From the sequence record NC_019768.1: a DNA stretch of 41,468 nt; one strand, written 5' to 3'. This stretch comes from Escherichia phage HK106. Positions 26,238-41,468 of this stretch are shown one piece after another. The notes beneath the pieces are model-generated. The model was given only the letters and a program-made list of their open reading frames with translations, was not told the origin of the DNA and ran no database searches. The translations under genes and the position numbers were made by a program. Each line of letters opens with the position of its first letter. Within the stretch, counting starts at the first letter, position 1.

Positions 26238-26621
26238 TCAGAATGGGATGGAATCGTCGTATACAGGAGTGTTCTGCTGGTTACTACTTTGCTGCTGCGG
26301 GCCATTTCCTGAAGCTGCAAATCCAATCTTTGCATTCAGTAATTCAAGAGTGATTGATTGACCATTTTGCCCCTGATAAACATCAACCCTGATGTTTTCT
26401 CCGGTAATTTCAACAATGCCTCCTTCAACCAGAACGCTACGGTAGTAATCCGCTTGCGCTCCCGGCTTGGCAAATACAACGGCGCTGTAGTTTGTCCATT
26501 CTTTCTTTTTTGTCTGGCGATCGTAATACTGAACGCCAGCACGGATGTTGAATCCGATATTTTCCCCGGCCTGAAACTCTCTTACGGGCTTGTTTAGTCT
26601 TACAGTAATCGAATGTGCCAT
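26238..26621 (-). CDS. ssb: single-stranded DNA-binding protein (short OB-fold SSB with acidic C-terminal tip)
   Basis: 127 aa from ATG at 26621 (TAATG overlap with erf); C-terminus …PVYDDSIPF resembles the conserved SSB tail DDDIPF. Confidence 0.6.
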   Translation of the reverse strand: MAHSITVRLNKPVREFQAGENIGFNIRAGVQYYDRQTKKKEWTNYSAVVFAKPGAQADYYRSVLVEGGIVEITGENIRVDVYQGQNGQSITLELLNAKIGFAASGNGPQQQSSNQQNTPVYDDSIPF

Positions 26622-27226
26622 TAAGCAGCCGCTCCTTCTAATTCGTCTCGTCTGATGTTGTAAACGTCCTGCGCTTTGTGCTGCTCCGGTGTGCCTTCGA
26701 GCATCTTCCACGCTTTGGCGAACGCCTGTTTAAGCTCTTCCACGGTGTTTTTCTGCAATGCTGCGTCAGTGAATGCTTTTAGAACCTGTTCAGGTGTAGG
26801 TGATGGTTTTGATTGCTTTGCTGCTGCGTTCTGCTGATGTTTATGCTCGTCTGTATCTGCATCTTTCGCATCATCTATGCCGAACAAACCATTGAGGCAA
26901 TACTTGCGTGCATAAGAGCTTGTAGCTCCAGTAACTTGTGCAGAATCCATTCCTTTCTTGCTTTCTTCCTCTCGTGCAAGAGCGGTTGCCGTATGACTGT
27001 TTTCGCCATCGGTAATAGTTGCCGTGGCTTTCACGTAATACCGATCACCAATCAACACAACTTCATCGCTGATTGATAAAAACAGGCCATTCAGTAACGG
27101 CTTAACGCCTTCAAGAATGTCTTCGCAGCTTCTGTATTTATATTTGCCGAATGAGTTGTACTGATTCTTTGGCGCGTTCAGATTCTCCTGAATAGCTGCC
27201 AGTCTTGCGTAAAATTCTTTGCTCAT
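26621..27226 (-). CDS. erf: Erf-family single-strand annealing protein
   Basis: 201 aa from ATG at 27226; MSKEFYARLAAIQENLNAPKNQYNSFGKYKYRSCEDILEG… closely resembles P22 Erf as I recall it. Confidence 0.85.
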   Translation of the reverse strand: MSKEFYARLAAIQENLNAPKNQYNSFGKYKYRSCEDILEGVKPLLNGLFLSISDEVVLIGDRYYVKATATITDGENSHTATALAREEESKKGMDSAQVTGATSSYARKYCLNGLFGIDDAKDADTDEHKHQQNAAAKQSKPSPTPEQVLKAFTDAALQKNTVEELKQAFAKAWKMLEGTPEQHKAQDVYNIRRDELEGAAA

Positions 27227-27482
27227 ATGATTGTTCTCAGAATGGACACGGCCCAAGGAAATAACGCTGATTTAATACTTCGACTCGGGACAAATTAAGG
27301 CATACCCGCATTCCTTCGCGGTCGCCATTATGGCGATACCAGAGAGCTTTCTGCGTGTACATGCGTCTCTGTAACTTGCTCTCCTTCACTGTGGTTGCAA
27401 GTGACATGAATATCTCCTTCGTTACCGATTAATTCTTTCATCTGACGAATGAATTCTTCGTCTGACCAGTTATCTGCAAAAC

Positions 27483-27635
27483 TCATTTCCTGCGATACCA
27501 CGGAAGGTTGATAGCTGATTTCATCGCTTTATTTGCTTCAAGCCACATTTTGGAATCACCAATAAATCTGGCTATTACTGCTTTGTTCTGTGCAGCACGA
27601 AGCATCTGGTGATTGATGGCTATTTCATTGCGCAT
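27483..27635 (-). CDS. Kil-like host-killing / cell division inhibitor protein
   Basis: 50-aa hand-translated ORF (MRNEIAINHQMLRAAQNKAVIARFIGDSKMWLEANKAMKSAINLPWYRRK) overlapping the cIII 3' end; resembles lambda Kil core; below track cut-off. Confidence 0.5.
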   Translation of the reverse strand: MRNEIAINHQMLRAAQNKAVIARFIGDSKMWLEANKAMKSAINLPWYRRK

Positions 27636-27754
27636 AACGCCTCCAGTTGTTTCTTTGCTGCTCTGATTAATTGTTTAACTCGGCGTGATAATTCAGATTC
27701 GTGCGGGTAGAAAGCGGACATGACGCCGCTACCCGCGAGCTGAAAGTGCATCAT
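27620..27754 (-). CDS. cIII: cIII-like protease inhibitor
   Basis: 44 aa from ATG at 27754 with SD AAGGAG; MMHFQLAGSGVMSAFYPHESELSRRVKQLIRAAKKQLEAL… cIII/C3 pattern. Confidence 0.7.
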   Translation of the reverse strand: MMHFQLAGSGVMSAFYPHESELSRRVKQLIRAAKKQLEALCAMK

Positions 27755-27818
27755 GGGTAACTCCTTATATTTGATTGCATAACGAAAACGCCTCGAGTGA
27801 AGCGTTATTGGTATGCAT

Positions 27819-27844
27819 ATAAAAAAGCCCTCACACTGGAGGGC
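27819..27844 (-). terminator. intrinsic terminator (tL-like) upstream of cIII
   Basis: minus strand GCCCTCC-agtgt-GAGGGC followed by TTTTTTAT. Confidence 0.45.
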
Positions 27845-27980
27845 AAAGAAGATTTCCAATAATCAGAACAAGTCGGCTCCTGTTTAGTTACGAGCGACAT
27901 TGCTCCGTGTATTCACTCGTTGGAATGAATACACAGTGCAGTGTTTATTCTGTTATTTATGCCAAAAATAAAGGCCACCA

Positions 27981-28232
27981 TCAGGCAGCCTTGTTGTAAA
28001 TGTTGCAGGTATCAAGTAAGTAATTAGATGGAGCGCCATAAATTATGAATTCATCGTTTGTCGGGTCCATCTCCATCTCTTGGCCTATTGCCATTCTTGC
28101 GTCAGTGTCATCAGCGGCGAAGCATAAAACAGCCCACGCACCCATTGTTTTAAAAAGAACTGCAATTGGCTGTGGTTTTACTGAATTTGCGTTAGCGCGA
28201 AAATCACAAATCGCACTTTCATGAAATTCCAT
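27981..28232 (-). CDS. hypothetical 83-aa protein
   Basis: ATG with SD GAGGTGA; located between N and cIII. Confidence 0.55.
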   Translation of the reverse strand: MEFHESAICDFRANANSVKPQPIAVLFKTMGAWAVLCFAADDTDARMAIGQEMEMDPTNDEFIIYGAPSNYLLDTCNIYNKAA

Positions 28233-28290
28233 ATATCACCTCAAATAAGTGGTTTGCTGCCTAATTTTATTTTCTGGCGACCAACACAAG

Positions 28291-28674
28291 TCACCTTGCT
28301 GTCAGTTGTTTTGATTTCCTGTAGCCTGCCGCGTAAAGAGCTACATTTGGAAGACATACACCAGTTTCTGGTTGCCTATGCCCAAACTCATTCGCGTACA
28401 CAATGGCCGCTCTCTCCAGATTGCGTCTGTATTCTTTCTGTTGCCAGATCACGTCCTGTGCCATGAACTTAATTGGCTTAGCGTCTTCTATGCGCTCAGG
28501 CGTTTCGTGAGTACCTTTAGCCTGAATCTGCGCTCTGCTTAGAGTAGGGCGGTGTAATACTTCTGAACTTATTGCTTCTTCGCGGGCCAGTACGCCGTTA
28601 GCTAATGCCTTTGCCTTTAAACGCTCACGACGACGAGAACGTGAATTGCCTTTGAACTGAGTTCTGCGTGTCAT
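28291..28674 (-). CDS. N-family antiterminator, P22 gene 24-like
   Basis: 127 aa, SD AGGAGG; N-terminal arginine-rich motif (GNSRSRRRERLKAKALA) and C-terminal …LPNVALYAAGYRKSKQLTAR resembling P22 gp24. Confidence 0.75.
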   Translation of the reverse strand: MTRRTQFKGNSRSRRRERLKAKALANGVLAREEAISSEVLHRPTLSRAQIQAKGTHETPERIEDAKPIKFMAQDVIWQQKEYRRNLERAAIVYANEFGHRQPETGVCLPNVALYAAGYRKSKQLTAR

Positions 28675-28839
28675 ATAGACCTCCTGATGAACTTTGGTGG
28701 TGTGGTAGGTGGGAGACCCATTTCGACCTGTTTCGGCCTACTTCAATTCGGCAATAGTCCCGCAGGCCTCGCCGCTTTACGTGCGACATATTCCCGTCCA
28801 TGAACCCTTCACCACACCCCAAAGTTCACTTTGGTTATT

Positions 28840-28854
28840 GCGCTTTGTCAGCGC
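28840..28854 (-). promoter_or_regulatory. nutL boxB-like hairpin (P22 type)
   Basis: minus-strand GCGCTGACAAAGCGC in the leader between PL and the N-like gene. Confidence 0.5.
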
Positions 28855-28922
28855 CGTAGATTCATCTCTGAATCGTTGTATATTCACCGCCCTGGTGAGT
28901 AGTGCGTCCTGCTGATGTGTTT

Positions 28923-28985
28923 AGTATCACCGCCAGTGGTATTTATGTCAACACCGCCAGAGATAATTTATCACCGCAGATGGTT
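28923..28985 (-). promoter_or_regulatory. OL1-OL2-OL3 operators and PL promoter (lambda type)
   Basis: TATCACCGCCAGTGGTA (28925-28941), CAACACCGCCAGAGATA (28949-28965), TATCACCGCAGATGGTT (28969-28985); minus-strand -35 TTGACA and -10 GATACT. Confidence 0.85.
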
Positions 28986-29136
28986 ATCTGTATGTTTTTT
29001 ATATAGATTTATTTTTTTGCAGGGGTGTGTGGCTTGGGAGGTGATCGAGAGATCTGAATTGCGATGTTTAGTGAGTTGTATCTATTAATTTTCAAATAAA
29101 TACAATTGGTTATGTGTTTTGGGGCGAACGTGAGGC

Positions 29137-29162
29137 AAAGAAAACCCGGCGCGGTGGCCGGG
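29137..29162 (-). terminator. tImm-like intrinsic terminator ending the cI-side operon
   Basis: minus strand CCCGGCC-accgc-GCCGGG followed by TTTTCTTTG, 7 nt after the stop of the 141-aa ORF. Confidence 0.55.
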
Positions 29163-29169
29163 TTGGAGA

Positions 29170-29595
29170 TTATTTTCTAGATGATGTTGGGGACCAAGGT
29201 AACGTTATAGTATCTAACACTGTGTTTTTGAACATATTTTCAAAAACTGTTTTTGTACATACATATACATAATTTTCAAAAAACCAAGCATTTTCATTAT
29301 AAAAATCCTCAGTTACTTCTTCATCGAGGTCACACTCAAATGTTAGTGTCAAGGTAGCCTCTGCCTTGAACAATACATCCTCACCATCATCAAAATCTTT
29401 TTTATCGCGAGGGAAACCAGTTATCGATGGCTTAACTTCAATAAAGAGCCAATTTCCATCTTCATCTTTTTGAGGAACAACGTGATGCTCAGAAAATTTT
29501 AAGCTATATTTTCCGCCTTCAGAATTATCACTGTCGTCGATAAAAAGGGAAGAACCCTCGAGATCAAATCCCTTAAAGCGAATTTTATCAAGCAT
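29170..29595 (-). CDS. hypothetical acidic protein, 141 aa, third gene of the hicAB cassette
   Basis: ATG at 29595 overlaps the hicB stop (TGATG); strongly acidic (about 29 D/E against 15 K/R); AT-rich codon usage; no family recognised. Confidence 0.6.
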   Translation of the reverse strand: MLDKIRFKGFDLEGSSLFIDDSDNSEGGKYSLKFSEHHVVPQKDEDGNWLFIEVKPSITGFPRDKKDFDDGEDVLFKAEATLTLTFECDLDEEVTEDFYNENAWFFENYVYVCTKTVFENMFKNTVLDTITLPWSPTSSRK

Positions 29596-30068
29596 CAATG
29601 TGGCACTCCGTTGTCTACTGAAACTTCCCAATAGGTCTCTTCTGTACGTCTACGGGATGAGAAGAAAGTAACTTCTCTAACATCCCTCGGTTTTTCAAAG
29701 TGGTAGTGAACCTCTTTTTTCCCATTAACTGACTCACTGACAGCCTGTTTTACATAATCGTTTAAAGTCATATTCTTAGCTTTAGCAGCTAAATATGCTT
29801 TTTTATGCAGGGATTCACCTATCCGGATGTTAAACGAACCACTCATTGTCTTATCTGGAGATTTTCCTATCTCTTCACAAGTGGAGAGGTAATCGTCCAC
29901 GGCCTCCTCAAAGGCTGCACGGAGTTCTGCAACCGTTGCACCCTCATAAGTGACGAGATCATTTATACATTCGAGTTTTCCATGCATCACCCCATCTTCA
30001 AATGAAATGCTGGAGCTACCATAGTAACCTTTGTATTTCATCAAGTTATTCATGATCATCAATCTCAT
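29595..30068 (-). CDS. hicB: HicB-family antitoxin (RNase H-like fold plus RHH DNA-binding region)
   Basis: …MKYKGYYGSSSISFEDGVMHGKLECINDLVTYEGATVAELRAAFEEAVDDYLSTCEEIGKSP…SFNIRIGESLHKKAYLAAKAKNMTLNDYVKQAV matches HicB pattern; overlaps hicA 3' end. Confidence 0.75.
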   Translation of the reverse strand: MRLMIMNNLMKYKGYYGSSSISFEDGVMHGKLECINDLVTYEGATVAELRAAFEEAVDDYLSTCEEIGKSPDKTMSGSFNIRIGESLHKKAYLAAKAKNMTLNDYVKQAVSESVNGKKEVHYHFEKPRDVREVTFFSSRRRTEETYWEVSVDNGVPH

Positions 30069-30300
30069 CTAACAGCTGTTTAACTTCTTCCAAGACGTAC
30101 CTTTTGAGGGTGTTTTCAGGATGAGGCTCATGAAAAATGACCAATCTATCAACACGTTGGTTGTAAAATTTACGGCCAGAACCTCGTTTAGCATTCAAAA
30201 GCTTGAAGCCATACTGGTTCATGAGAGTAACGAACTCATCCCAAGTAAAATTTTTGGGTAAGCCGTCTAACTTTGACTTTAGCTTTTCCTTTCTTCCCAC
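30046..30300 (-). CDS. hicA: HicA-family mRNA interferase toxin
   Basis: 84 aa, GTG start; …GSGRKFYNQRVDRLVIFHEPHPENTLKRYVLEEVKQLL fits the HicA/YcfA pattern; precedes hicB as in hicAB operons. Confidence 0.7.
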   Translation of the reverse strand: MGRKEKLKSKLDGLPKNFTWDEFVTLMNQYGFKLLNAKRGSGRKFYNQRVDRLVIFHEPHPENTLKRYVLEEVKQLLDEIDDHE

Positions 30301-30326
30301 GAAGGATACATCCTCTGTTAAAGGTA

Positions 30327-30349
30327 GTGCAACTGAAATCTAGTTGCAA
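30327..30349 (-). promoter_or_regulatory. inverted repeat, candidate HicB operator in the hicA promoter region
   Basis: TTGCAACT-n7-AGTTGCA(c) palindrome about 30 bp upstream of the hicA start in an AT-rich spacer. Confidence 0.35.
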
Positions 30350-30460
30350 GCTATGCTATCTATAGACAAAATGTTTCATTGTTATATCAGAAGATACCCG
30401 ATCTGTTTCACCTTCAACTACTATAATTTGTTATAAGCTATCAACCGGTGGAACTGCGAA

Positions 30461-30559
30461 TTAGCCGCTGGGTGTTGCGTATCCATCGATGATAAACCAT
30501 GCCATAAACCCCATAGCTACGATGAACACCAAGATCGGAAACACTATACCAATTCTCAT
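30461..30559 (-). CDS. possible 32-aa hydrophobic peptide (single TM)
   Basis: hand-translated MRIGIVFPILVFIVAMGFMAWFIIDGYATPSG; weak SD; between cI and hicA. Confidence 0.25.
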   Translation of the reverse strand: MRIGIVFPILVFIVAMGFMAWFIIDGYATPSG

Positions 30560-30663
30560 GATTTTATCCCTGTCTACCCATGCTTCCTGGGCACCAGCGG
30601 CTCGTTACTCGGCATCACCCTTAATCCGCCGCCCCATGTGTTTGTTGTGATCCGTTGCTGGCC

Positions 30664-31380
<717 letters not shown>

Positions 31381-31387
31381 TTAAATC

Positions 31388-31453
31388 TATCACCGCAAGG
31401 GATAAATATCTAACACCGTGCGTGTTGACTATTTTACCTCTAGCGGTGATAAT
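31388..31453. promoter_or_regulatory. OR3-OR2-OR1 operators with divergent PRM and PR (lambda type)
   Basis: TATCACCGCAAGGGATA (31388-31404), TAACACCGTGCGTGTTG (31411-31427), TACCTCTAGCGGTGATA (31435-31451); PR -35 TTGACT 31424-31429 and -10 GATAAT 31448-31453. Confidence 0.85.
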
Positions 31454-31468
31454 GGTTGCATGTACTAA

Positions 31469-31678
<210 letters not shown>

Positions 31679-31685
31679 GTAACAC

Positions 31686-31731
31686 CGCTCTTTTCACAAT
31701 GGACATTCGTCCTACGTCGCTGACAAAGCGA
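31686..31731 (+). promoter_or_regulatory. nutR-like site: boxA CGCTCTTTT and boxB hairpin TCGCTGACAAAGCGA
   Basis: boxA consensus-like 9-mer 8 nt after cro stop; boxB stem-loop with the same GACAAAG loop as the leftward boxB. Confidence 0.5.
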
Positions 31732-31816
31732 GTCCCAATATATCTGACCAACTAAGGCCATATGCGTTTCCACGCATACCTTTCAACTAACTATTCACTA
31801 TTGGAAATCTTAAGAA

Positions 31817-32113
31817 ATGGAAAGAACAAGTTACAGCAAACTATCACAGCGTGACGTTGATCGCGCAGAAACAGATTTACTCATCAACCTGTCAACGCTT
31901 ACCCAGCGCGGTCTGGCAAAGATGATTGGCTGTCATGAATCGAAGATAAGCAGAACGGACTGGAGATTTATTGCTTCGGTCTTGTGTGCTTTTGGAATGG
32001 CATCAGACATCAGTCCGATTAGCAGGGCTTTTAAGTATGCGCTTGATGAAATCACAAAGAAAAAATCCCCGGCCGCCACCGAGGATTTTAAGCAAATTGA
32101 TATGCAATTCTGA
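31817..32113 (+). CDS. CII-like transcriptional activator (not lambda cII)
   Basis: 98 aa; C-terminus …KKKSPAATEDFKQIDMQF parallels lambda CII …NKKRPAATERSEQIQMEF, remainder divergent. Confidence 0.7.
   Translation: MERTSYSKLSQRDVDRAETDLLINLSTLTQRGLAKMIGCHESKISRTDWRFIASVLCAFGMASDISPISRAFKYALDEITKKKSPAATEDFKQIDMQF
31826..31839 (-). promoter_or_regulatory. candidate CII-binding site (TTGC-N6-TTGT) of a PRE-like promoter
   Basis: minus-strand TTGCTGTAACTTGT inside the first codons of the cII-like gene, the position where lambda PRE sits. Confidence 0.3.
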
Positions 32114-32145
32114 GGGAATTACTGGATCAATCCACAGGAGTAATT

Positions 32146-32307
32146 ATGACAAAACGTCGTAAGAAATACCAGGAAAAAGAAGAGATTCGACACCCTGATT
32201 CACCTGAGGGATTAGTGGTAGCCGCAGCAAATAACAGGGCGTTCGCAGAGCGCCTTGTTGGTGTTTACAGACTAGCCAAAGCAGGAGTGAAGCATGGGCG
32301 TCGTTAA
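32146..32307 (+). CDS. possible small basic protein, 53 aa
   Basis: ATG with SD CAGGAG 5 nt upstream; hand-translated MTKRRKKYQEKEEIRHPDSPEGLVVAAANNRAFAERLVGVYRLAKAGVKHGRR; below track cut-off. Confidence 0.35.
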   Translation: MTKRRKKYQEKEEIRHPDSPEGLVVAAANNRAFAERLVGVYRLAKAGVKHGRR

Positions 32308-33184
32308 GTTAGCTGATTACAGGCATAACCCTGTACAACATCAGGAGGCATCCAGTATGGGGTATGTCTCTATACACCGCCAGTTTATGGACAGCAGGCT
32401 CTATAAGGACTCTCAGGCAGTACATCTTTGGCTTCACTTAATCCTCAAGGCTAATCACGAATCTACTGTCGTCAATACGGATATCGGTCCGATAACTGTT
32501 GATCGCGGTCAGATGATAACTGGACGCCCGTCGCTGGTCAGAGAAACATTCATCCCCGACAACAAAGTTCGGAGCTTATTACGGACTTTTGAGTCGAAAG
32601 GGATGCTTAATATTTGCTCGATGGGGAAGAAATTTAGCCTGTTTACAATCGTTAAATATGACGATTTTCAGGCAAAAAATTGTCCAACGGTTGTCCAACG
32701 GTTGTCCAACGCAAACACCAGTAATGGCGCGGATCTCAGCGGAGATTGTCCAACGGTTGTCCAACGGTTGTCCATAAACAATAATATAAATAATATCTCT
32801 AATACTGACGTATTAGAGAGTGCCACAGCAGACAAAAAGTCTGACAAGAAAAAACCTTCCGTTAGCTGTCAGGATGTTGTCGATGCTTACCACGAAATCC
32901 TTCCTGAAGCGCCAAGAATCCGCGCACTGAATGACAAGCGTAAAAACCAGATCCGAACGTTCTGGCGCAAAGCCGGAGTGATAACCCGTCAGCTTGACGG
33001 GCATGGGTTCACGATGCAGGACTGGAGAAATTATTTGAGCTACGTAGGCGAAAATTGCCGATGGATGTTCGAAGAGCGCCCAAACCATCAACGCGGAACC
33101 GTCTGGCACAAAAAGGGATTTGATTTCCTGCTTAACGATAATACCTACCTGAAAGTTCGTGAGGGTGAACACGATGACCGATAA
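32294..33184 (+). CDS. replication initiator protein (O-like, origin-binding)
   Basis: 296 aa, SD AGGAG; contains the iteron cluster inside its coding sequence; followed by the helicase gene. Confidence 0.7.
   Translation: MGVVKLADYRHNPVQHQEASSMGYVSIHRQFMDSRLYKDSQAVHLWLHLILKANHESTVVNTDIGPITVDRGQMITGRPSLVRETFIPDNKVRSLLRTFESKGMLNICSMGKKFSLFTIVKYDDFQAKNCPTVVQRLSNANTSNGADLSGDCPTVVQRLSINNNINNISNTDVLESATADKKSDKKKPSVSCQDVVDAYHEILPEAPRIRALNDKRKNQIRTFWRKAGVITRQLDGHGFTMQDWRNYLSYVGENCRWMFEERPNHQRGTVWHKKGFDFLLNDNTYLKVREGEHDDR
32680..32775 (+). repeat. origin iterons: two clusters of three tandem 11-bp TTGTCCAACGG repeats, followed by an AT-rich stretch
   Basis: units at 32680, 32691, 32702 and 32746, 32757, 32768 (last partial); AT-rich 32776-32810; lambdoid ori architecture inside the initiator gene. 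Confidence 0.75.
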
Positions 33185-34610
33185 TTTTTATGCGCCGCCC
33201 CATAGTATCGAGGCAGAGCAGGCGGTGATTGGTGGATTGCTTCTGGATGATGACAGCAGTGAGCGCGTCCAGAAAGTTCTGGCGATACTGAAGCCTGATT
33301 CATTTTACAGCCGACCACACAAAATCCTTTTCGAAGAAATAACCAGAATGCACCGTGAGCAAAAGCCAGTAGATGGCCTGACGCTTTTCGATGAACTGGA
33401 GCGTAAATCGTTAACGGCGTCTGTTGGCGGTTTTGCTTATATCGCTGAGATCGCAAAGAACACGCCAAGCGCAGCAAACATCGTTGCTTATGCAATGCAG
33501 GTTCGCGAAACCGCAATGGAACGCTACGCCATCAACCGCATGACTGAAGCGACGGAATTGCTCTATTCCCGCAACGGAATGACTGCAACGCAGAAGTACG
33601 AAGCTATTCAGTCGATTTTCACGCAACTGACAGACCATGCAAAAACCGGATCGCGTCGCGGCCTTCGCTCATTTGGTGAGGTCATGGAAGACTGGGTTAG
33701 CGACCTTGAGAAGCGATTTGACCCGTCAGGCGAACAACGAGGAATGAGCACAGGGATCCCATCGTTGGACAGGATGCTGTCACCGAAAGGTCTGGTAAAA
33801 GGCTCTCTGTTTGTCATTGGCGCTCGCCCTAAGATGGGGAAAACGACGCTATACAGCCAGATGGCAATCAACTGCGCAGTGCATGAGAAAAAGCCCGCTC
33901 TGATGTTCAGCCTTGAAATGCCAGGTGACCAGATACTGGAAAAACTGGTAGGGCAGAAGTCAGGTGTGAACCCGAATATTTTTTACCTTCCGGCGACAAA
34001 TGACGCTGATGACGGCTATCAGGGTGATTACGATGGTGACTTCAACAGGGCGATCGAGACAGCCAATCGCTTGAGTGAAATCGACCTGCTTTACATCGAC
34101 GACACGCCGGGATTATCTCTGGCTCAAATCGTCAGCGAAAGCCGTCGAATCAAACGAGAAAAAGGATGCGTTGGCATGATTCTGGTCGATTACCTGACGC
34201 TAATGACCGCTGAAAAGGCCGATCGCAACGACCTTGCATACGGCATGATCACCAAAGGACTGAAGAACCTTGCCAAAGAGCTTGATTGCGTTGTTGTGCT
34301 TCTGACACAGCTTAACCGCGCATTGGAAAGCCGAACCAATAAACGCCCATTACCATGTGACTCGCGCGATACAGGGCAGATTGAACAGGATTGCGATTAT
34401 TGGGTGGGGATCCATCGGGAAGGTGCTTTTGATGACAGTGTTCCACCTGGTGAAACCGAACTAATCCTTCGTCTCAACCGTCATGGCAATACCGGCACGG
34501 TGTATTGCATTCAGGCAAATGGCGCTATTTATGACACAGACCAACAGTCTGCTGAAATGCGCCGCCGTGAACGCGAGGAACCGCAATCCAAGAAGAAAGG
34601 AGGATTCTGA
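33174..34610 (+). CDS. replicative DNA helicase, DnaB family
   Basis: about 478 aa from ATG at 33174; N-terminal DnaB-like region (SIEAEQAVIGGLLLD) and RecA-like core with Walker A GARPKMGKTT. Confidence 0.85.
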   Translation: MTDNFYAPPHSIEAEQAVIGGLLLDDDSSERVQKVLAILKPDSFYSRPHKILFEEITRMHREQKPVDGLTLFDELERKSLTASVGGFAYIAEIAKNTPSAANIVAYAMQVRETAMERYAINRMTEATELLYSRNGMTATQKYEAIQSIFTQLTDHAKTGSRRGLRSFGEVMEDWVSDLEKRFDPSGEQRGMSTGIPSLDRMLSPKGLVKGSLFVIGARPKMGKTTLYSQMAINCAVHEKKPALMFSLEMPGDQILEKLVGQKSGVNPNIFYLPATNDADDGYQGDYDGDFNRAIETANRLSEIDLLYIDDTPGLSLAQIVSESRRIKREKGCVGMILVDYLTLMTAEKADRNDLAYGMITKGLKNLAKELDCVVVLLTQLNRALESRTNKRPLPCDSRDTGQIEQDCDYWVGIHREGAFDDSVPPGETELILRLNRHGNTGTVYCIQANGAIYDTDQQSAEMRRREREEPQSKKKGGF

Positions 34611-34638
34611 TGACCATCTACATCACTGAGCTAATAAC

Positions 34639-34670
34639 AGGCCTGCTGGTAATCGCAGGCCTTTTTATTT
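34639..34670 (+). terminator. intrinsic terminator (tR2-like) between helicase and ninB
   Basis: AGGCCTGC-tggtaatc-GCAGGCCT followed by TTTTATTT. Confidence 0.6.
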
Positions 34671-34686
34671 GGGGGAGAGGGAAGTC

Positions 34687-35127
34687 ATGAAAAAACTAAC
34701 CTTTGAAATTCGATCTCCGGCACATCAGCAAAACGCTATTCACGCGGTACAGCAAATTCTTCCAGACCCAACCAAACCAATCGTAGTAACCATTCAGGAA
34801 CGCAACCGCAGCTTAGACCAAAACAGGAAGCTATGGGCCTGCTTAGGTGACGTCTCTCGTCAGGTTGAATGGCATGGTCGCTGGCTGGATGCAGAAAGCT
34901 GGAAGTGTGTTTTTACAGCAGCATTAAAGCAGCAGGACGTTGTTCCTAACCTTGCCGGGAATGGCTTTGTGGTAATAGGCCAGTCAACCAGCAGGATGCG
35001 TGTAAGCGAATTTGCGGAGTTATTAGAGCTTATACAGGCATTCGGTACAGAGCGTGGCGTTAAGTGGTCAGACGAAGCGCGACTGGCTCTGGAGTGGAAA
35101 GCGAGATGGGGAGACAAGGCTGCATGA
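34687..35127 (+). CDS. ninB: NinB (Orf family recombination mediator)
   Basis: 146 aa [56 protein letters not shown]…, lambda NinB-like. Confidence 0.9.
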
Positions 35128-35300
35128 GACGACAGCGACGAAGTATCACCGACATCATCTGTGAAAACTGCAAATACCTTCCAACGAAACGCTCCAGAAA
35201 TAAACGCAAGCCAATCCCAAAAGAATCTGACGTAAAAACCTTCAACTACACGGCTCACCTGTGGGATATCCGGTGGCTAAGACATCGTGCGAGGAAATGA
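35124..35300 (+). CDS. ninD: NinD-like zinc-ribbon protein
   Basis: 58 aa [42 protein letters not shown]…, ATGA overlap with ninB. Confidence 0.7.
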
Positions 35301-35302
35301 CA

Positions 35303-35665
35303 ATGGATTATTCACAGTTAAGTGATTTTGAAATTAACAAGCGAGTGGCAATTTGCTGTGGATTTGCTCCCGAAGATTGCGAAATCGCAAAGTTGGGAAC
35401 ATCAATCGTTGGTGTTGAGTGGGATGACGAAACTGGTTATGCAATAAAAACGGTTGATTACTGTAAAAGACCATCAGACGCATGGCCGATTATCACTGAA
35501 AACAACATCAGCATAATTTTAGACAATCCCTCAATGCCGTGCGCTACAGACAACGCAAGGGACTTGTTTGATGATGCCGGACCGAATGTTGGTGTCGCAT
35601 ATGACAATCCACTCCGTGCCGCCATGATTGTCTTTCTCATGATTCAGGACGCCAATAATGCTTAG
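35303..35665 (+). CDS. NinX-like protein
   Basis: about 120 aa from ATG at 35303 (SD GAGGAA); MDYSQLSDFEINKRVA… pattern. Confidence 0.55.
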   Translation: MDYSQLSDFEINKRVAICCGFAPEDCEIAKLGTSIVGVEWDDETGYAIKTVDYCKRPSDAWPIITENNISIILDNPSMPCATDNARDLFDDAGPNVGVAYDNPLRAAMIVFLMIQDANNA

Positions 35666-35834
35666 CCCATCCCAATCCCTTCAATACCAGAAAGAAAGCG
35701 TCGAGCGGGCATTAACGTGCGCTAACTGCGGTCAGAAGTTGCATGTGCTGGAAGTTCACGTGTGTGAGCACTGCTGCGCAGAACTGATGAGCGATCCGAA
35801 TAGCTCAATGTACGAGGAAGAAGACGATGGCTAA
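35658..35834 (+). CDS. ninF: NinF-like protein
   Basis: 58 aa [58 protein letters not shown]. Confidence 0.7.
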
Positions 35835-36438
35835 ACCAGCGCGAAGACGATGTAAAAACGATGAATGTCGGGAATGGTTTCACCCTGCATTCGCCAATCA
35901 GTGGTGGTGCTCTCCAGAGTGTGGAACCAAGATAGCACTCGAACGACGAAGTAAAGAACGCGAAAAAGCGGAAAAAGCAGCAGAGAAGAAACGACGACGA
36001 GAGGAGCAGAAACAGAAAGATAAACTTAAGATTCGAAAACTCGCCTTAAAGCCCCGCAGTTACTGGATTAAACAAGCCCAACAAGCCGTAAACGCCTTCA
36101 TCAGAGAAAGAGACCGCGACTTACCATGTATCTCGTGCGGAACGCTCACGTCTGCTCAGTGGGATGCCGGACATTACCGGACAACTGCTGCGGCACCTCA
36201 ACTCCGATTTGATGAACGCAATATTCACAAGCAATGCGTGGTGTGCAACCAGCACAAAAGCGGAAATCTCGTTCCGTATCGCGTCGAACTGATTAATCGC
36301 ATCGGGCAGGAAGCAGTAGACGAAATCGAATCAAACCATAACCGCCATCGCTGGACTGTCGAAGAGTGCAGGGCCATCAAGGCGGAGTATCAGCAGAAAC
36401 TCAAAGACCTGCGAAATAGCAGAAGTGAGGCCGCATGA
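35827..36438 (+). CDS. ninG: NinG / Rap recombination-promoting nuclease
   Basis: 203 aa, lambda NinG-like. Confidence 0.9.
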
Positions 36439-36641
36439 CGTTCTCAGTAAAAACCATTCCAGACATGCTCGTTGAAGCATACGGAAACCAGACAGAAGTA
36501 GCACGCAGACTGAAATGTAGTCGCGGTACGGTCAGAAAATACGTTGATGATAAAGACGGGAAAATGCACGCCATCGTCAACGACGTTCTCATGGTTCATC
36601 GCGGATGGAGTGAAAGAGATGCGCTATTACGAAAAAATTGA
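36435..36641 (+). CDS. ninH: NinH
   Basis: 68 aa, lambda NinH-like. Confidence 0.85.
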
Positions 36642-37284
36642 TGGCAGCAAATACCGAAATATTTGGGTAGTTGGCGATCTGCACGGATGCTACACGAACC
36701 TGATGAAAAAACTGGAGACGATAGGATTCGACACCAAAAAAGACCTGCTTATCTCGGTTGGCGATTTGGTCGATCGCGGTACAGAGAACGTCGAATGCCT
36801 GGAATTAATCACATTCCCCTGGTTCAGAGCTGTACGTGGAAACCATGAGCAAATGATGATTGATGGCTTATCAGAGCGCGGAAACGTCAATCACTGGATG
36901 CTTAATGGCGGTGGCTGGTTCTTTAATCTCGATTACGACAAAGAAATTCTGGCTAAAGCTCTTGCCCATAAAGCAGATGAACTTCCGTTAATCATCGAAC
37001 TGGTGAGCAAAGATAAAAAATATGTCATCTGCCACGCCGATTATCCTTGTGACGAATACGAGTTTGGAAAGCCAGTTGATCATCAGCAGGTAATCTGGAA
37101 CCGCGAACGAATCAGCAACTCACAAAACGGGATCGTGAAAGAAATCAAAGGCGCGGACACGTTCATCTTTGGTCATACGCCAGCAGTGAAACCACTCAAG
37201 TTTGCCAACCAAATGTATATCGATACCGGCGCAGTGTTCTGCGGAAACCTAACATTGATTCAGGTACAGGGAGAAGGCGCATGA
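36619..37284 (+). CDS. ninI: NinI serine/threonine protein phosphatase (lambda phosphatase)
   Basis: 221 aa from ATG at 36619; metallophosphoesterase motifs GDLHG, GDLVDRG, GNHE. Confidence 0.9.
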
Positions 37285-37904
37285 GACTCGAAAGCGTAGC
37301 TAAATTTCATTCGCCAAAAAGCCCGATGATGAGCGACTCACCACGGGCCACGGCTTCTGACTCTCTTTCCGGTACTGATGTGATGGCTGCTATGGGGATG
37401 GCGCAATCACAAGCCGGATTCGGTATGGCTGCATTCTGCGGTAAGCACGAACTCAGCCAGAACGACAAACAAAAGGCTATCAACTATCTGATGCAATTTG
37501 CACACAAGGTATCGGGGAAATACCGTGGTGTGGCAAAGCTTGAAGGAAATACTAAGGCAAAGGTACTGCAAGTGCTCGCAACATTCGCTTATGCGGATTA
37601 TTGCCGTAGTGCCGCGACGCCGGGGGCAAGATGCAGAGATTGCCATGGTACAGGCCGCGCGGTTGATATAGCAAAAACAGAGCAGTGGGGGAGAGTTGTT
37701 GAGAAAGAGTGCGGAAGATGCAAAGGTGTCGGCTATTCAAGGATGCCAGCAAGCGCCGCATATCGCGCTGTAACGATGCTAATCCCAAACCTTACTCAAC
37801 CCACCTGGTCACGCACTGTTAAGCCGCTGTATGACGCTCTGGTGGTGCAATGCCACAAGGAAGAGTCAATCGCAGACAATATCTTGAATGCGGTCACACG
37901 TTAG
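37281..37904 (+). CDS. Q: Q late-gene antiterminator
   Basis: 207 aa, lambda Q-like including the zinc-binding CRDCHGTG…CGRCKG region. Confidence 0.9.
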
Positions 37905-37946
37905 CAGCATGATTGCCACGGATGGCAACATATTAACGGCATGATA

Positions 37947-37975
37947 TTGACTTTTTGAATAAAGTTGGGTAAATT
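37947..37975 (+). promoter_or_regulatory. late promoter PR' (-35 TTGACT, -10 TAAATT)
   Basis: 17-bp spacing; directly downstream of Q, as in lambda. Confidence 0.7.
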
Positions 37976-38013
37976 TGACATCAACGATGGATAAATTCAC
38001 TCGTTAAATAAAG

Positions 38014-38041
38014 CCCTGAGTTAATATCTCGGGGTTTTTTG
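38014..38041 (+). terminator. tR'-like terminator (defines a short 6S-like leader RNA)
   Basis: CCCTGAG-ttaatat-CTCGGGG followed by TTTTTT about 40 nt downstream of the PR' -10. Confidence 0.6.
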
Positions 38042-38338
38042 CGTTTTAAGCACGGCCTTTCTGAAAGCACATCAAACCAAATACCAGACAGACAAAAATA
38101 ATCAACTTATCCGCTGTGGCTACGGTGCGGTGTGCTTTGCATAAAAGAAAACCAGCGCAATGGCTGGCTTCGTGAAAGCGGGTGGCATGAGGTTGCCCTA
38201 ACAACCTCCTGCCGTTTTGCCCGTGCATATCGGTCACGAACAAATCTGATTACTAAACACAGTAGCCTGGATTTGTTCTATCAGTAATCGACCTTATTCC
38301 TAATTAAATAGAGCAAATCCCCTTATTGGGGGTAAGAC

Positions 38339-38662
38339 ATGAAGATGCCAGAAAAAAATGACCTGTTAGCCGCCATTCTCGCGGCAAAGGAACAAGGCAT
38401 CGGGGCAATCCTTGCGTTTGCAATGGCGTACCTTCGCGGCAGATATAATGGCGGTGCGTTTACAAAAACAGTAATCGACGCAACGATGTGCGCCATTATC
38501 GCCTGGTTCATTCGTGACCTTCTCGGCTTCGCCGGACTAAGTAGCAATCTCGCTTATATAACGAGCGTGTTTATCGGCTACATCGGTACTGACTCGATTG
38601 GTTCGCTTATCAAACGCTTCGCTGCTAAAAAAGCCGGAGTAGAAGATGGTGGGAATCAATAA
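38339..38662 (+). CDS. S: holin S (dual-start S107/S105)
   Basis: 107 aa [43 protein letters not shown]…, lambda S-like with Met1-Lys2-Met3 dual start. Confidence 0.95.
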
Positions 38663-39122
38663 TCAACGTAAGGCGTTCCTCGATATGCTGGCATGGTCAG
38701 AGGGAACTGATAACGGACGTCAGAAAACCAGAAATCATGGTTATGACGTCATTGTTGGCGGAGAGCTATTCACTGATTACTCCGATCACCCTCGCAAACT
38801 TGTCACGCTAAACCCGAAACTCAAATCAACAGCCGCCGGACGCTACCAGCTTCTTTCCCGTTGGTGGGATGCCTATCGTAAGCAGCTTGGCCTGAAAGAC
38901 TTCTCTCCGAAAAGCCAGGATGCGGTGGCGTTACAGCAGATTAAAGAACGCGGCGCGCTGCCGCTGATTGATCGGGGTGATATTCGTCAGGCTATTGATC
39001 GTTGCAGCAATATTTGGGCTTCATTGCCCGGTGCTGGCTACGGTCAGTATGAACACAAGATCGATAGTCTGATTGCCAAATTCAAAGAAGCTGGCGGGGT
39101 GGTTAATGAAACTTCGCTATAA
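38646..39122 (+). CDS. R: endolysin R (lytic transglycosylase)
   Basis: 158 aa, lambda R-like. Confidence 0.95.
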
Positions 39123-39567
39123 GCTGGTTATTTCTGCTTTCCTCCTGACTTTATTCGGTTCTCTCGTCTGGTCAGCTAATCATTACCACAATAAAGCCAT
39201 TGAATACAAAAAACAGCGCGACGAAAACGCTATGGCATTAGATTCGGCTATGGCGACGATCTCTGATATGCAGAAGCGTCAACGTGACGTAGCAGAACTC
39301 GATGCCAGATATACAAAGGAGCTTGCTGATGCTAACGCGACTATCGAAAGTCTCCGTGCTGATGTTTCTGCTGGTCGTAAGCGCCTGCAAGTCGCCGCCA
39401 CCTGTGCAAAGTCAACGACCGGAGCCAGCGGCATGGGCGATGGAGAAAGCCCAGGACTTACAGCAGATGCTGAACTCAATTATTACCGTCTCCGAAGTGG
39501 AATCGACAGGATAACCGCGCAGGTTAACTACCTGCAGGAGTACATCAGGACGCAATGCCTGAAATAA
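39106..39567 (+). CDS. Rz: spanin inner-membrane subunit Rz (i-spanin)
   Basis: about 153 aa from ATG at 39106; N-terminal TM helix and coiled coil; central region resembles lambda Rz, ends divergent. Confidence 0.8.
   Translation: MKLRYKLVISAFLLTLFGSLVWSANHYHNKAIEYKKQRDENAMALDSAMATISDMQKRQRDVAELDARYTKELADANATIESLRADVSAGRKRLQVAATCAKSTTGASGMGDGESPGLTADAELNYYRLRSGIDRITAQVNYLQEYIRTQCLK
39329..39514 (+). CDS. Rz1: spanin outer-membrane lipoprotein Rz1 (o-spanin), embedded in Rz in the +1 frame
   Basis: about 61 aa from the in-frame ATG at 39329; signal peptide with lipobox VSAC and proline-rich mature region. Confidence 0.7.
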   Translation: MLTRLSKVSVLMFLLVVSACKSPPPVQSQRPEPAAWAMEKAQDLQQMLNSIITVSEVESTG

Positions 39568-39599
39568 TTTTTTTGCAAATCACAAAGTCCATTTAATGA

Positions 39600-39622
39600 G
39601 CCTCGCGATGCGGGGCTTTTTT
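39600..39622 (+). terminator. intrinsic terminator after the lysis cassette
   Basis: GCCTCGCG-at-GCGGGGC followed by TTTTTTA. Confidence 0.55.
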
Positions 39623-39765
39623 ATGTCCGCAGTAAACGCGCATCTCACGCGCATATTAACGAGAGCCTTTCAGTAAGCGAGCCTGAGAAATGCCGTTATA
39701 GGTGGCGACCTCTCTCGGGCGGCTTTTCTGTGAGACAGGCTCACTTTCTAAAAGGTAAAGACGCT

Positions 39766-40254
39766 ATGAACCAATTAGAAGAAAAGCTTCAAAGAATGAT
39801 TTCCTTATACAAGGAAGATAACTGCCAAAAAGTTCCTGAAAACATCGCAGAGTTAATGGAATTGGCAAGTGAATTTTCTGGCATGCTTAAGTCGTCAGGT
39901 GTTCGGTCAGCGTTCTTTGTTGAAATGCTGATGCACGGCGGACTTAGGGCAACAATGAGACGTGTAATGGAAGACCAGAGAAAAGAACCTCCTCAGGTAT
40001 ACGTTTTGTCATCGAAGAAAACTGGGCTAACCAAAATTGGGTATTCATCCAACATTCCACAACGCATCAAATCGCTTGGCAACTCTGGACCAGACTGCTT
40101 GAAGCTTGAGTGCCTGATCCCTGGTGGAAGAGAAACTGAAAACATGCTTCATCGCAAATTTGCCGCAAAGAGAAAGCACGGTGAATGGTTCGCCCTGTCC
40201 AAGGATGACATTGAGGGATTGAAATCTGTAGCGATTACTTCTGATGGCTATTAA
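39766..40254 (+). CDS. T5orf172-domain (GIY-YIG-like) protein, unknown function
   Basis: about 162 aa from ATG at 39766 (track start 39730 is GTG); C-terminal VYVLSS…KIGYSSN…R…E…HRKF…GEWF pattern of the T5orf172 / MUG113 domain. Confidence 0.6.
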   Translation: MNQLEEKLQRMISLYKEDNCQKVPENIAELMELASEFSGMLKSSGVRSAFFVEMLMHGGLRATMRRVMEDQRKEPPQVYVLSSKKTGLTKIGYSSNIPQRIKSLGNSGPDCLKLECLIPGGRETENMLHRKFAAKRKHGEWFALSKDDIEGLKSVAITSDGY

Positions 40255-40737
40255 TGCTTGTTTAGAGCAATTTTCATAACAACTCTTCATTCCAAAGCCC
40301 ATCTACGGGTGGGCTTGATAATGAAACCGTGATTTACATCCCTCACAATCCAGGTATGTAAAAGCTGGATCATGCGAGAACGGATTTAACTAAATCTGTG
40401 CGCCACCAGTTAACGGCAGCACCGCGAAACAACCCAAGCCAGTAAGTGGGGAAATAACACTGGCAGCCACTGAAAGATGAACCTCCTGCCTTATGGCAAA
40501 AAAGATTCTTTGTGGTGGCGGACTGATGGAAAGACATCGGTTATTGCAGAGACCATTCAATGAGTGGTCTCGACAATAGCTTATACCCTACACGGGATAA
40601 CTTAACTGATATCCCTTTTAACGGATAAACGGAGCCAACAATGGCAGAGATTATTCTCATGACTGAAGAACAGAAATTCCAGTTAGAGATTTACAAACTG
40701 GTCATGAACCAGAACGCCGCCGTGCATGGAGACTGGC

Positions 40738-41079
40738 ATGAACAAAGAGCCCCGCGTATATGGCAGCCGATGGGATAAGGCCCGTCTGCGTTTTCTCCAG
40801 CAGCACCCACTGTGTGTGATGTGCGAGCAGCAGGGGCGCATAACACCAGCAACGGTGGTCGACCATATCGTGCCCCACAAACTGAAAGATGCGCTTAAGT
40901 CAGGTAACCCTCTGGCCATATCGAAAGCACAGCTCCTGTTCTGGAGTAAAGAGAACTGGCAGCCACTGTGCAAAGCGCATCATGACTCAACGAAACAGAG
41001 AATGGAGAAGAGCGGCGCGGTAATCGGTTGTGATGCCAACGGCTACCCGCTCGATCCTGCGTCTCACTGGAGCACGTAA
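40738..41079 (+). CDS. HNH endonuclease (HK97 gp74-type, terminase-associated)
   Basis: about 113 aa from ATG at 40738 (SD GGAGA; in-frame ATG also at 40726); …CVMCEQQGRITPATVVDHIVPH…LCKAHH… HNH motif; last gene before the terminase genes. Confidence 0.8.
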   Translation: MNKEPRVYGSRWDKARLRFLQQHPLCVMCEQQGRITPATVVDHIVPHKLKDALKSGNPLAISKAQLLFWSKENWQPLCKAHHDSTKQRMEKSGAVIGCDANGYPLDPASHWST

Positions 41080-41282
41080 TGAAAGACCTCATCATTGAAT
41101 ACCGAGACGGTAAGTTTGTTCAGCTGGCGATTGATGGCGTGGAGATGAAGCGCGTAACGTCTATCCAGTTCTCCCACACCTTAGGCGAGGACGTACCGAC
41201 ATTGACCGTGTCAGGACATGTGTGGTCCGAGTATGGGAAAGGCGATCACAAACTCGAACAGGTAGACAAACATTCGGCATAG
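41079..41282 (+). CDS. hypothetical 67-aa protein
   Basis: ATG overlaps the HNH stop (TAATG). Confidence 0.45.
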   Translation: MKDLIIEYRDGKFVQLAIDGVEMKRVTSIQFSHTLGEDVPTLTVSGHVWSEYGKGDHKLEQVDKHSA

Positions 41283-41468
41283 CGCGGCGGCGGCAAGTAG
41301 ATTATCTATCATGTGAAATCATTTCAAATGCAACGATATCAAATGAGAATGAATCGCATTCAGGGCAGGGGGGGGGGATCAAATCTTCAAAACCTTTGCC
41401 CCAAATGACCGCCGCCAAAGTTTGAATTTAACGCTAACCCGATTTTTTTAGTTTTAAGGTGTTGACAT
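41283..41468. other. putative cos / packaging-initiation region containing a G10 tract
   Basis: non-coding stretch between the HNH gene block and the small terminase gene at position 1; homopolymer G10 at 41368-41377; the exact cleavage site cannot be read from sequence alone. Confidence 0.3.

Follow-up and report, generated by a model that had tools for sequence, protein, structure and literature searches.

What has replaced the rexA and rexB genes in the immunity region of a phage that carries a lambda-type repressor and lambda-type operators? The question is raised by Escherichia phage HK106 (NC_019768.1), whose whole 41,468-nucleotide sequence was analysed here and is referred to as the window. 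A first-pass annotation of its letters alone had described, between cI and the OL/PL region, a cassette made of a HicA-like toxin gene, a HicB-like antitoxin gene and an unassigned open reading frame (ORF) for an acidic 141-residue protein, here called hicC, and had found no named family to which the module could be assigned. Our analysis indicates that the cassette is very probably a HicAB-type toxin-antitoxin-chaperone (TAC) module. We favour as likely the broader reading of a HicAB-type TAC moron that has taken the place of rexAB in an HK97-like phage with lambda immunity, combining chaperone addiction with exclusion; for the defence component taken by itself, that is, that the cassette would exclude other phages as analogous systems do, we consider the chances even.

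The assignment to TAC systems follows from three elements taken together: a SecB-like third protein, a C-terminal tail on HicB, and the gene architecture. The third protein is acidic (pI 4.36), as had been noted and as is SecB. It has no match in Pfam, NCBIfam or PADLOC, and its sole match is to a PHROG without an assigned function. When 1.84 billion cluster representatives were searched exhaustively with a profile, only 61 clusters (defined at 50% identity) were retrieved, about 50 of them full-length with 131-155 aa. The first-pass annotation had proposed structure prediction for this protein, and a template-free AlphaFold model built from an 11-sequence alignment consists of four long strands followed by a long helix, with a best predicted local distance difference test score (pLDDT) of 77.8. 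When this model was searched with Foldseek, all 17 matches below E 1e-3 were to SecB or to Rv1957 (E 7e-6 to 3e-4), and the closest solved structure is the Mycobacterium tuberculosis TAC chaperone with its bound chaperone addiction domain (ChAD) peptide (5mtw). On the strength of this model, HicC is a candidate SecB-like chaperone with a SecB fold, an identity that was reached only by structure prediction and fold search, every sequence route having failed. The TAC chaperones of Bordes et al. 2016 were reportedly recognised as SecB homologues, whereas HicC is invisible to the Pfam SecB model. Separately, the HicC profile also matched short stretches repeatedly in giant repetitive proteins of 1000-3600 aa (P0171, P0194, P0196, P0207 and P0216), P0171, for example, being hit ten times with profile positions 2-36; they are probably artefacts of composition or of beta-repeats.

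The second protein is recognised as HicB by Pfam above the gathering threshold (PF05534, 66.9 bits, E 1.5e-18) and by PHROG 9151, HicB-like antitoxin (E 5e-55, residues 6-124 of the 157-residue ORF), with a weaker match to an Arc-like repressor (PHROG 582, E 3e-4). No match was obtained with solved HicB proteins by sequence or with E. coli K-12 HicB by hhalign. The likely start is an internal ATG that is also the start called in homologues, giving 152 aa arranged as an N-terminal HicA-binding core, a ribbon-helix-helix (RHH)-type DNA-binding region and a C-terminal tail. This tail comprises 39 residues that lie outside both the PF05534 match and the 119-position PHROG HicB profile. HicB has 590 homologues in the search made here; homologues without the tail stop at about residue 113-120. 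Across four diverged cassettes the invariant tail positions are H116-Y-H-F-E-K-P-R123, F130, W142 and E143, so that the aromatic residues Y117, F119, F130 and W142 are all kept, and the rest of the tail is variable. TAC antitoxins are described as a canonical antitoxin extended by a C-terminal ChAD that varies in sequence and length (PMC5105189), and the ChAD is recognised by its cognate SecB-like chaperone through aromatic residues (bioRxiv 10.1101/2024.02.24.581848); a variable tail with conserved aromatics matches these reported features.

The HicB tail and the third gene travel together. In every tailed locus examined (from Pantoea, three metagenomic prophages, Enterobacter, E. coli, Vibrio and Pseudomonas), the gene of a tailed HicB (146-162 aa) is coupled to a downstream gene for a protein of 141-155 aa. 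The third genes of Enterobacter, E. coli and Vibrio are homologous to that of the window, with 24-30% identity and hhalign E values of 2e-21, 1e-20 and 4e-10. The Pseudomonas locus (L021) has the same three-gene layout; its third gene aligns with an E value of 0.012 over 22 columns and is counted only as a positional analogue, not as a confident HicC homologue. Conversely, tail-less HicB proteins of 124 and 126 aa are encoded in plain two-gene hicAB loci with no third gene (two complete loci; one further tail-less locus, L017, ran off its contig and stands outside this count). Such co-occurrence is what chaperone addiction predicts, and would not be expected of an unrelated passenger gene.

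Concerning the toxin, HicA is accepted by the Pfam model PF07927 (32.1 bits, gathering threshold 27), and its predicted structure shows the double-stranded-RNA-binding-like fold known from HicA RNase toxins. Sequence comparison found no match with solved HicA structures, from which this protein is too divergent, and hhalign gave no alignment with E. coli K-12 HicA; family membership is settled because the fold search matched where these comparisons failed. The toxin thus belongs to a type II toxin family of the kind found in TAC systems, whose toxins are HigB, MqsR, HicA or CmdT, and the proposed HicA-like and HicB-like identities of the two proteins both stand. In studied HicA toxins, the histidine of a GSH-type loop is taken as catalytic. 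The clade to which the present HicA belongs has an invariant G40-S41, then G or R, then R43 (GS(G/R)RKF); the corresponding stretch of E. coli K-12 HicA is GSNH. In this clade H57-E-P-H60-P is also invariant. Since the HicA partners of tail-less HicB carry a GS(G/R)RKF-type loop as well, the change is a feature of this HicA clade and not of TACs.

The cassette sits exactly where the first-pass annotation had put it, in the place of rexAB. By blastn, window 28884-29164 corresponds to lambda 35550-35826 (89.7% identity), the lambda segment ending at the rexB stop, and window 30668-31692 corresponds to lambda 37231-38255 (97.7% identity), homology restarting 4 nt into the end of cI. The intervening 29165-30667 is therefore an exact replacement of rexB-rexA, of 1503 bp against 1404 bp in lambda. 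No RexA or RexB homology was found within it: the lambda match breaks off across the segment, and no cassette protein matches the PADLOC Rex models. All cassette genes and cI lie on the minus strand, in the order cI, a 32-residue YoaK-family gene, hicA, hicB, third ORF and terminator. The three main genes are translationally coupled as described, hicA and hicB overlapping by 8 nt (ATGAATAA) and the hicB stop sharing one base with the third-ORF ATG (TGATG). The tImm-like terminator was likewise found after the last stop: it is homologous to that of lambda, begins 5-7 nt past the stop, and has an 8-bp stem with six GC pairs at 29164-29143 followed by TTTTCTTT (folding energy -14.6 kcal/mol, z = -3.7). 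The visible AT-richness of the cassette is also borne out, with a G+C content of 0.398, compared with 0.452 and 0.438 for the flanking sequences and 0.493 for the window as a whole, a value as low being reached in only 0.7% of 1503-bp windows. Finally, the lambda character of cI and of OL/PL was upheld by Pfam, by a promoter scan and by the annotation of GenBank EF120460, and the N gene was confirmed beyond PL/OL.

Two features may govern expression of the cassette. The palindrome already remarked upstream of hicA is perfect and unique in the window, was found in none of 100 shuffles, and overlaps a weak promoter-like TTGCAA-17-TACCTT that was read by eye and lies below the scan threshold. In four diverged cassettes that otherwise cannot be aligned upstream, both arms are unchanged and only the 7-nt spacer varies, a phylogenetic footprint that would suit an operator for an RHH-type HicB. 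Moreover, the terminator scan found no terminator between cI and hicA, which makes read-through from PRM to tImm plausible, and with it transcription of the cassette in lysogens as for rexAB.

By analogy with characterised TACs, namely M. tuberculosis HigBA1, the HicAB system of Methylomonas methanica, HigBAC and CmdTAC, we propose that a HicC tetramer would bind the aromatic-rich tail of HicB and keep the antitoxin soluble and stable, and that HicB stabilised in this way would neutralise HicA. HicB would also repress the cassette promoter through the conserved palindrome, and the genes would in addition be read from PRM to tImm in the lysogen. Upon infection, an abundant phage protein could compete for HicC and displace the HicB tail; HicB would then be lost, HicA would cut RNA and the infection would abort, in a functional equivalent of Rex exclusion.

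Table 1. Features of the HK106 immunity region and related modules (window coordinates, except for the last row, in which each locus has its own).
Feature	Position	Strand	Basis
Whole inserted cassette (yoaK-like, hicA, hicB, hicC) replacing lambda rexB-rexA	29165..30667	-	blastn against lambda; GC
hicA, 84-aa toxin, GTG start	30046..30300	-	Pfam PF07927; fold search
hicB, antitoxin, 152 aa (longest ORF 29595-30068, 157 aa; likely start ATG at 30053)	29595..30053	-	PF05534; PHROG 9151
HicB C-terminal tail, residues 114-152 (EVHYHFEKPRDVREVTFFSSRRRTEETYWEVSVDNGVPH), candidate ChAD	29598..29714	-	beyond the HicB profile and tail-less homologues
hicC, 141-aa acidic SecB-like chaperone candidate (previously unassigned ORF)	29170..29595	-	predicted fold
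Perfect palindrome TGCAACT-n7-AGTTGCA, candidate HicB operator	30328..30348	.	27 nt upstream of hicA start
tImm-homologous intrinsic terminator, T-run to ~29137	29143..29164	-	terminator scan; Timm in EF120460
cI repressor, lambda immunity	30664..31377	-	Pfam HTH_3 + Peptidase_S24; 97.7% identity to lambda
PRM	31384-31412		PRM and OR coordinates transferred from EF120460
PL promoter and OL1-OL3 operators, downstream locus boundary	28923..28985	-	promoter scan, TTGACA-17-GATACT; EF120460 annotation
YoaK-family small membrane protein gene, 32 aa	30461..30559	-	NCBIfam NF033821, E 4.9e-15, 54.9 bits against cut-off 32
Related three-gene modules elsewhere	L013/L014 2260-3396; L015/L016 2253-3429; L011/L012 2259-3381; L021 1736-2887		neighbourhood survey

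The closest precedents support such a scheme to different degrees. HigBAC of E. coli NT1F31 is likewise an operon of a toxin, a ChAD antitoxin and a SecB-like chaperone, and lies in the variable locus downstream of a lambdoid prophage cI, at the position of lambda rexAB; it defends against lambda-vir from this cI-adjacent slot and is the strongest precedent (bioRxiv 10.1101/2024.02.24.581848). It differs in having HigB and HigA as toxin and antitoxin, and a ChAD of about 97 residues compared with about 39 in the present HicB. The TAC of Methylomonas methanica (Mmet-TAC) shares the HicAB pair, a C-terminal extension of the antitoxin (119-159) and dependence on a cognate SecB-like chaperone, validated in that system; antitoxin length and tail position are similar, as compared by description only, whereas that system is chromosomal, belongs to a methanotroph and is not reported as phage-borne or defence-tested (PMC5105189). 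The HigBA1-SecB^TA system of M. tuberculosis (Rv1955-Rv1957) provides in Rv1957 (5mtw) the closest fold to HicC, at only 13% sequence identity, and differs in its HigBA pair, its chromosomal location and its description as stress-responsive. CmdTAC and MqsRAC show the same architecture on mobile elements, with an mRNA ADP-ribosyltransferase and MqsR as toxins instead and in loci of the P2-like hypervariable region; both defend against phages, extra chaperone induction abolished protection in both, and in CmdTAC loss of the antitoxin upon infection frees the toxin (PMC9519451, PMC11618068). Only for HigBAC and CmdTAC has it been shown that a phage protein triggers defence by competing for the chaperone. 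With lambda RexAB, the cassette has in common an identical genomic position, probable transcription from PRM to tImm and an expected exclusion role in lysogens; RexAB consists of a sensor and a membrane protein, without sequence or fold relation to the cassette. E. coli K-12 HicAB has no significant profile similarity to the present pair, no antitoxin tail and no third gene, and its HicA has GSNH where the present clade has GSGR.

The genomic contexts of related modules also bear on function. The cassette of the window is found at 99.6-99.7% identity beside quite different repressors, as in a Rac-like E. coli prophage, and it is therefore mobile as one block. In prophages of Pantoea, Enterobacter and Pseudomonas and in metagenomic lambdoids, more distant versions immediately follow an S24-type repressor; in an E. 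coli lambdoid the module sits in the nin region, flanked by hok and rusA-Q, and in Vibrio it is found in an island between an integrase and alpA-vapE. These are places where prophages and satellites keep accessory and defence genes. The Enterobacter variant occurs in more than 1000 blocks of the assembly collection.

Several results weigh against a HicAB-type TAC engaged in exclusion. HicC profiles built from 11 and from 55 sequences found no match among PDB sequences, none of the 55 family members matches the Pfam SecB model, and hhalign of the family with E. coli SecB gave a non-significant E value of 0.17, the alignment falling on the topologically equivalent region of strand 4 and the helix. 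Of five AlphaFold models built from a shallow alignment of 11 sequences, a single one is confident (pLDDT 77.8), the other four scoring about 44. The canonical loop histidine of HicA appears to be missing, judging from the sequence, so that RNase activity is not assured. None of the four cassette proteins (HicA, HicB, HicC and the YoaK-like protein) matched a PADLOC-DB v2 model when E values up to 1 were admitted. Lastly, the two-gene HicAB2 of a Pseudomonas putida prophage is a functional toxin-antitoxin (TA) system with no defence or stability phenotype (PMC12894663). If the SecB-like prediction were spurious, or the third ORF an unrelated passenger, the functional unit would be a two-gene HicAB; the absence of sequence similarity to SecB or to any annotated family and the low confidence of four of the five models would fit, but its constant association with the HicB tail is not what a passenger would show, and we regard this explanation as very improbable. 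The same low probability applies to a SecB-fold protein with another role, whether a second antitoxin acting on HicA or an anti-defence or phage-assembly factor. SecB-fold proteins do bind many unfolded clients, and with a HicA apparently devoid of the canonical GSH histidine the module may depart from the textbook mechanism. However, strict co-occurrence argues that the client is the HicB tail, the top structural hit is to a TAC chaperone solved in complex with its ChAD peptide, and movement of the cassette as a unit between unrelated prophage backbones argues against a function in the assembly of one phage.

A more serious alternative is that the module serves solely for addiction, prophage maintenance or stress-responsive growth control, with no exclusion of phages. 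TA modules are textbook examples of addiction elements; HigBA1-SecB of M. tuberculosis, the founding member of the TACs, was presented as a stress-responsive system and not as defence (PMC3581621); and P. putida HicAB2 gave no protection against the phages tested (PMC12894663). Moreover, the cassette is rare, only 6 of 5426 complete E. coli genomes carrying at least 80% of it. Against this, it occupies exactly the slot of lysogen-expressed exclusion systems, its relatives are found at further known hot spots for defence genes (behind repressors, within the nin region, inside an integrase-AlpA island), anti-phage activity has been seen in each of the three other TAC types tested to date, and P. 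putida HicAB2 showed no stabilising role either. We consider an addiction-only role rather unlikely, and retain a HicAB-type TAC with exclusion as the preferred reading. A further extension of it is possible rather than probable: HicC would represent a SecB-fold clade missed by sequence surveys and act as the phage sensor of a HicAB-type TAC that gives mEp234 and HK106 lysogens a Rex-like exclusion, with a trigger other than lambda gpV, and HicA would be a variant that lacks the canonical loop histidine and has a different catalytic arrangement or target.

The statement that the module cannot be assigned to a named family did not survive this analysis, given the SecB-like fold of the third protein, the ChAD-like tail of HicB, the TAC architecture and the HigBAC precedent at the same locus. 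With the third gene resolved as a SecB-like TAC chaperone, what made the locus look exceptional falls away: the cassette is an uncharacterised example of a known system type, in a locus where that type has already been demonstrated. As system type, mechanism and location are already established, and a HicAB-type TAC is here added to a slot where HigBAC was shown before, the gain is incremental. Nonetheless, the region between cI and tImm of lambdoid phages emerges as a natural swap site for lysogen-expressed exclusion systems, and since Pfam, NCBIfam and PADLOC all miss the HicC family, TAC systems are undercounted in surveys based on sequence. We found no phage-defence test of any HicAB-type TAC in the searchable literature; mEp234 and HK106 grow on E. 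coli K-12, which makes the module easy to test.

Nor is the locus newly found. Region 29000-30700 is 100% identical to the mEp234 and HK106 immunity regions and also to mEp234 genomes, and EF120460 (2007) already has, in the same places, annotations for hicA, hicB, a hypothetical protein, Timm, OL1-3, PL and PRM. It has thus been in GenBank since 2007, and a 2025 record (PV340539.1) labels the three genes HicA toxin, HicB antitoxin and 'HicC chaperone'; our literature searches found no paper explaining or testing this last label.

The segment that replaces rexAB also holds, between cI and hicA, the YoaK-family gene, which the first-pass annotation had passed over. It accompanies the cassette in the Rac-like E. 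coli prophage and in Pantoea and is absent from other cassettes (present in L002 and L009, absent from L004-L006); it is an optional passenger of the cassette.

At the scale of the window, no Rfam family was found at gathering thresholds, and plus-strand ORFs and promoter-like sites within the cassette were at chance level and were dismissed. The lowest-GC 1.5-kb windows of the whole sequence begin at 28851-29051, and the non-coding stretch from OL3 to tImm (28986-29142) is very AT-rich and conserved in lambda (89.7% across 28884-29164). The window as a whole (1-41468) looks like a complete mosaic HK97-like phage genome, with a left arm (1-22800) about 97.5% identical to HK97 or HK633 and a right part (26480-41468) about 99% identical to mEp234.

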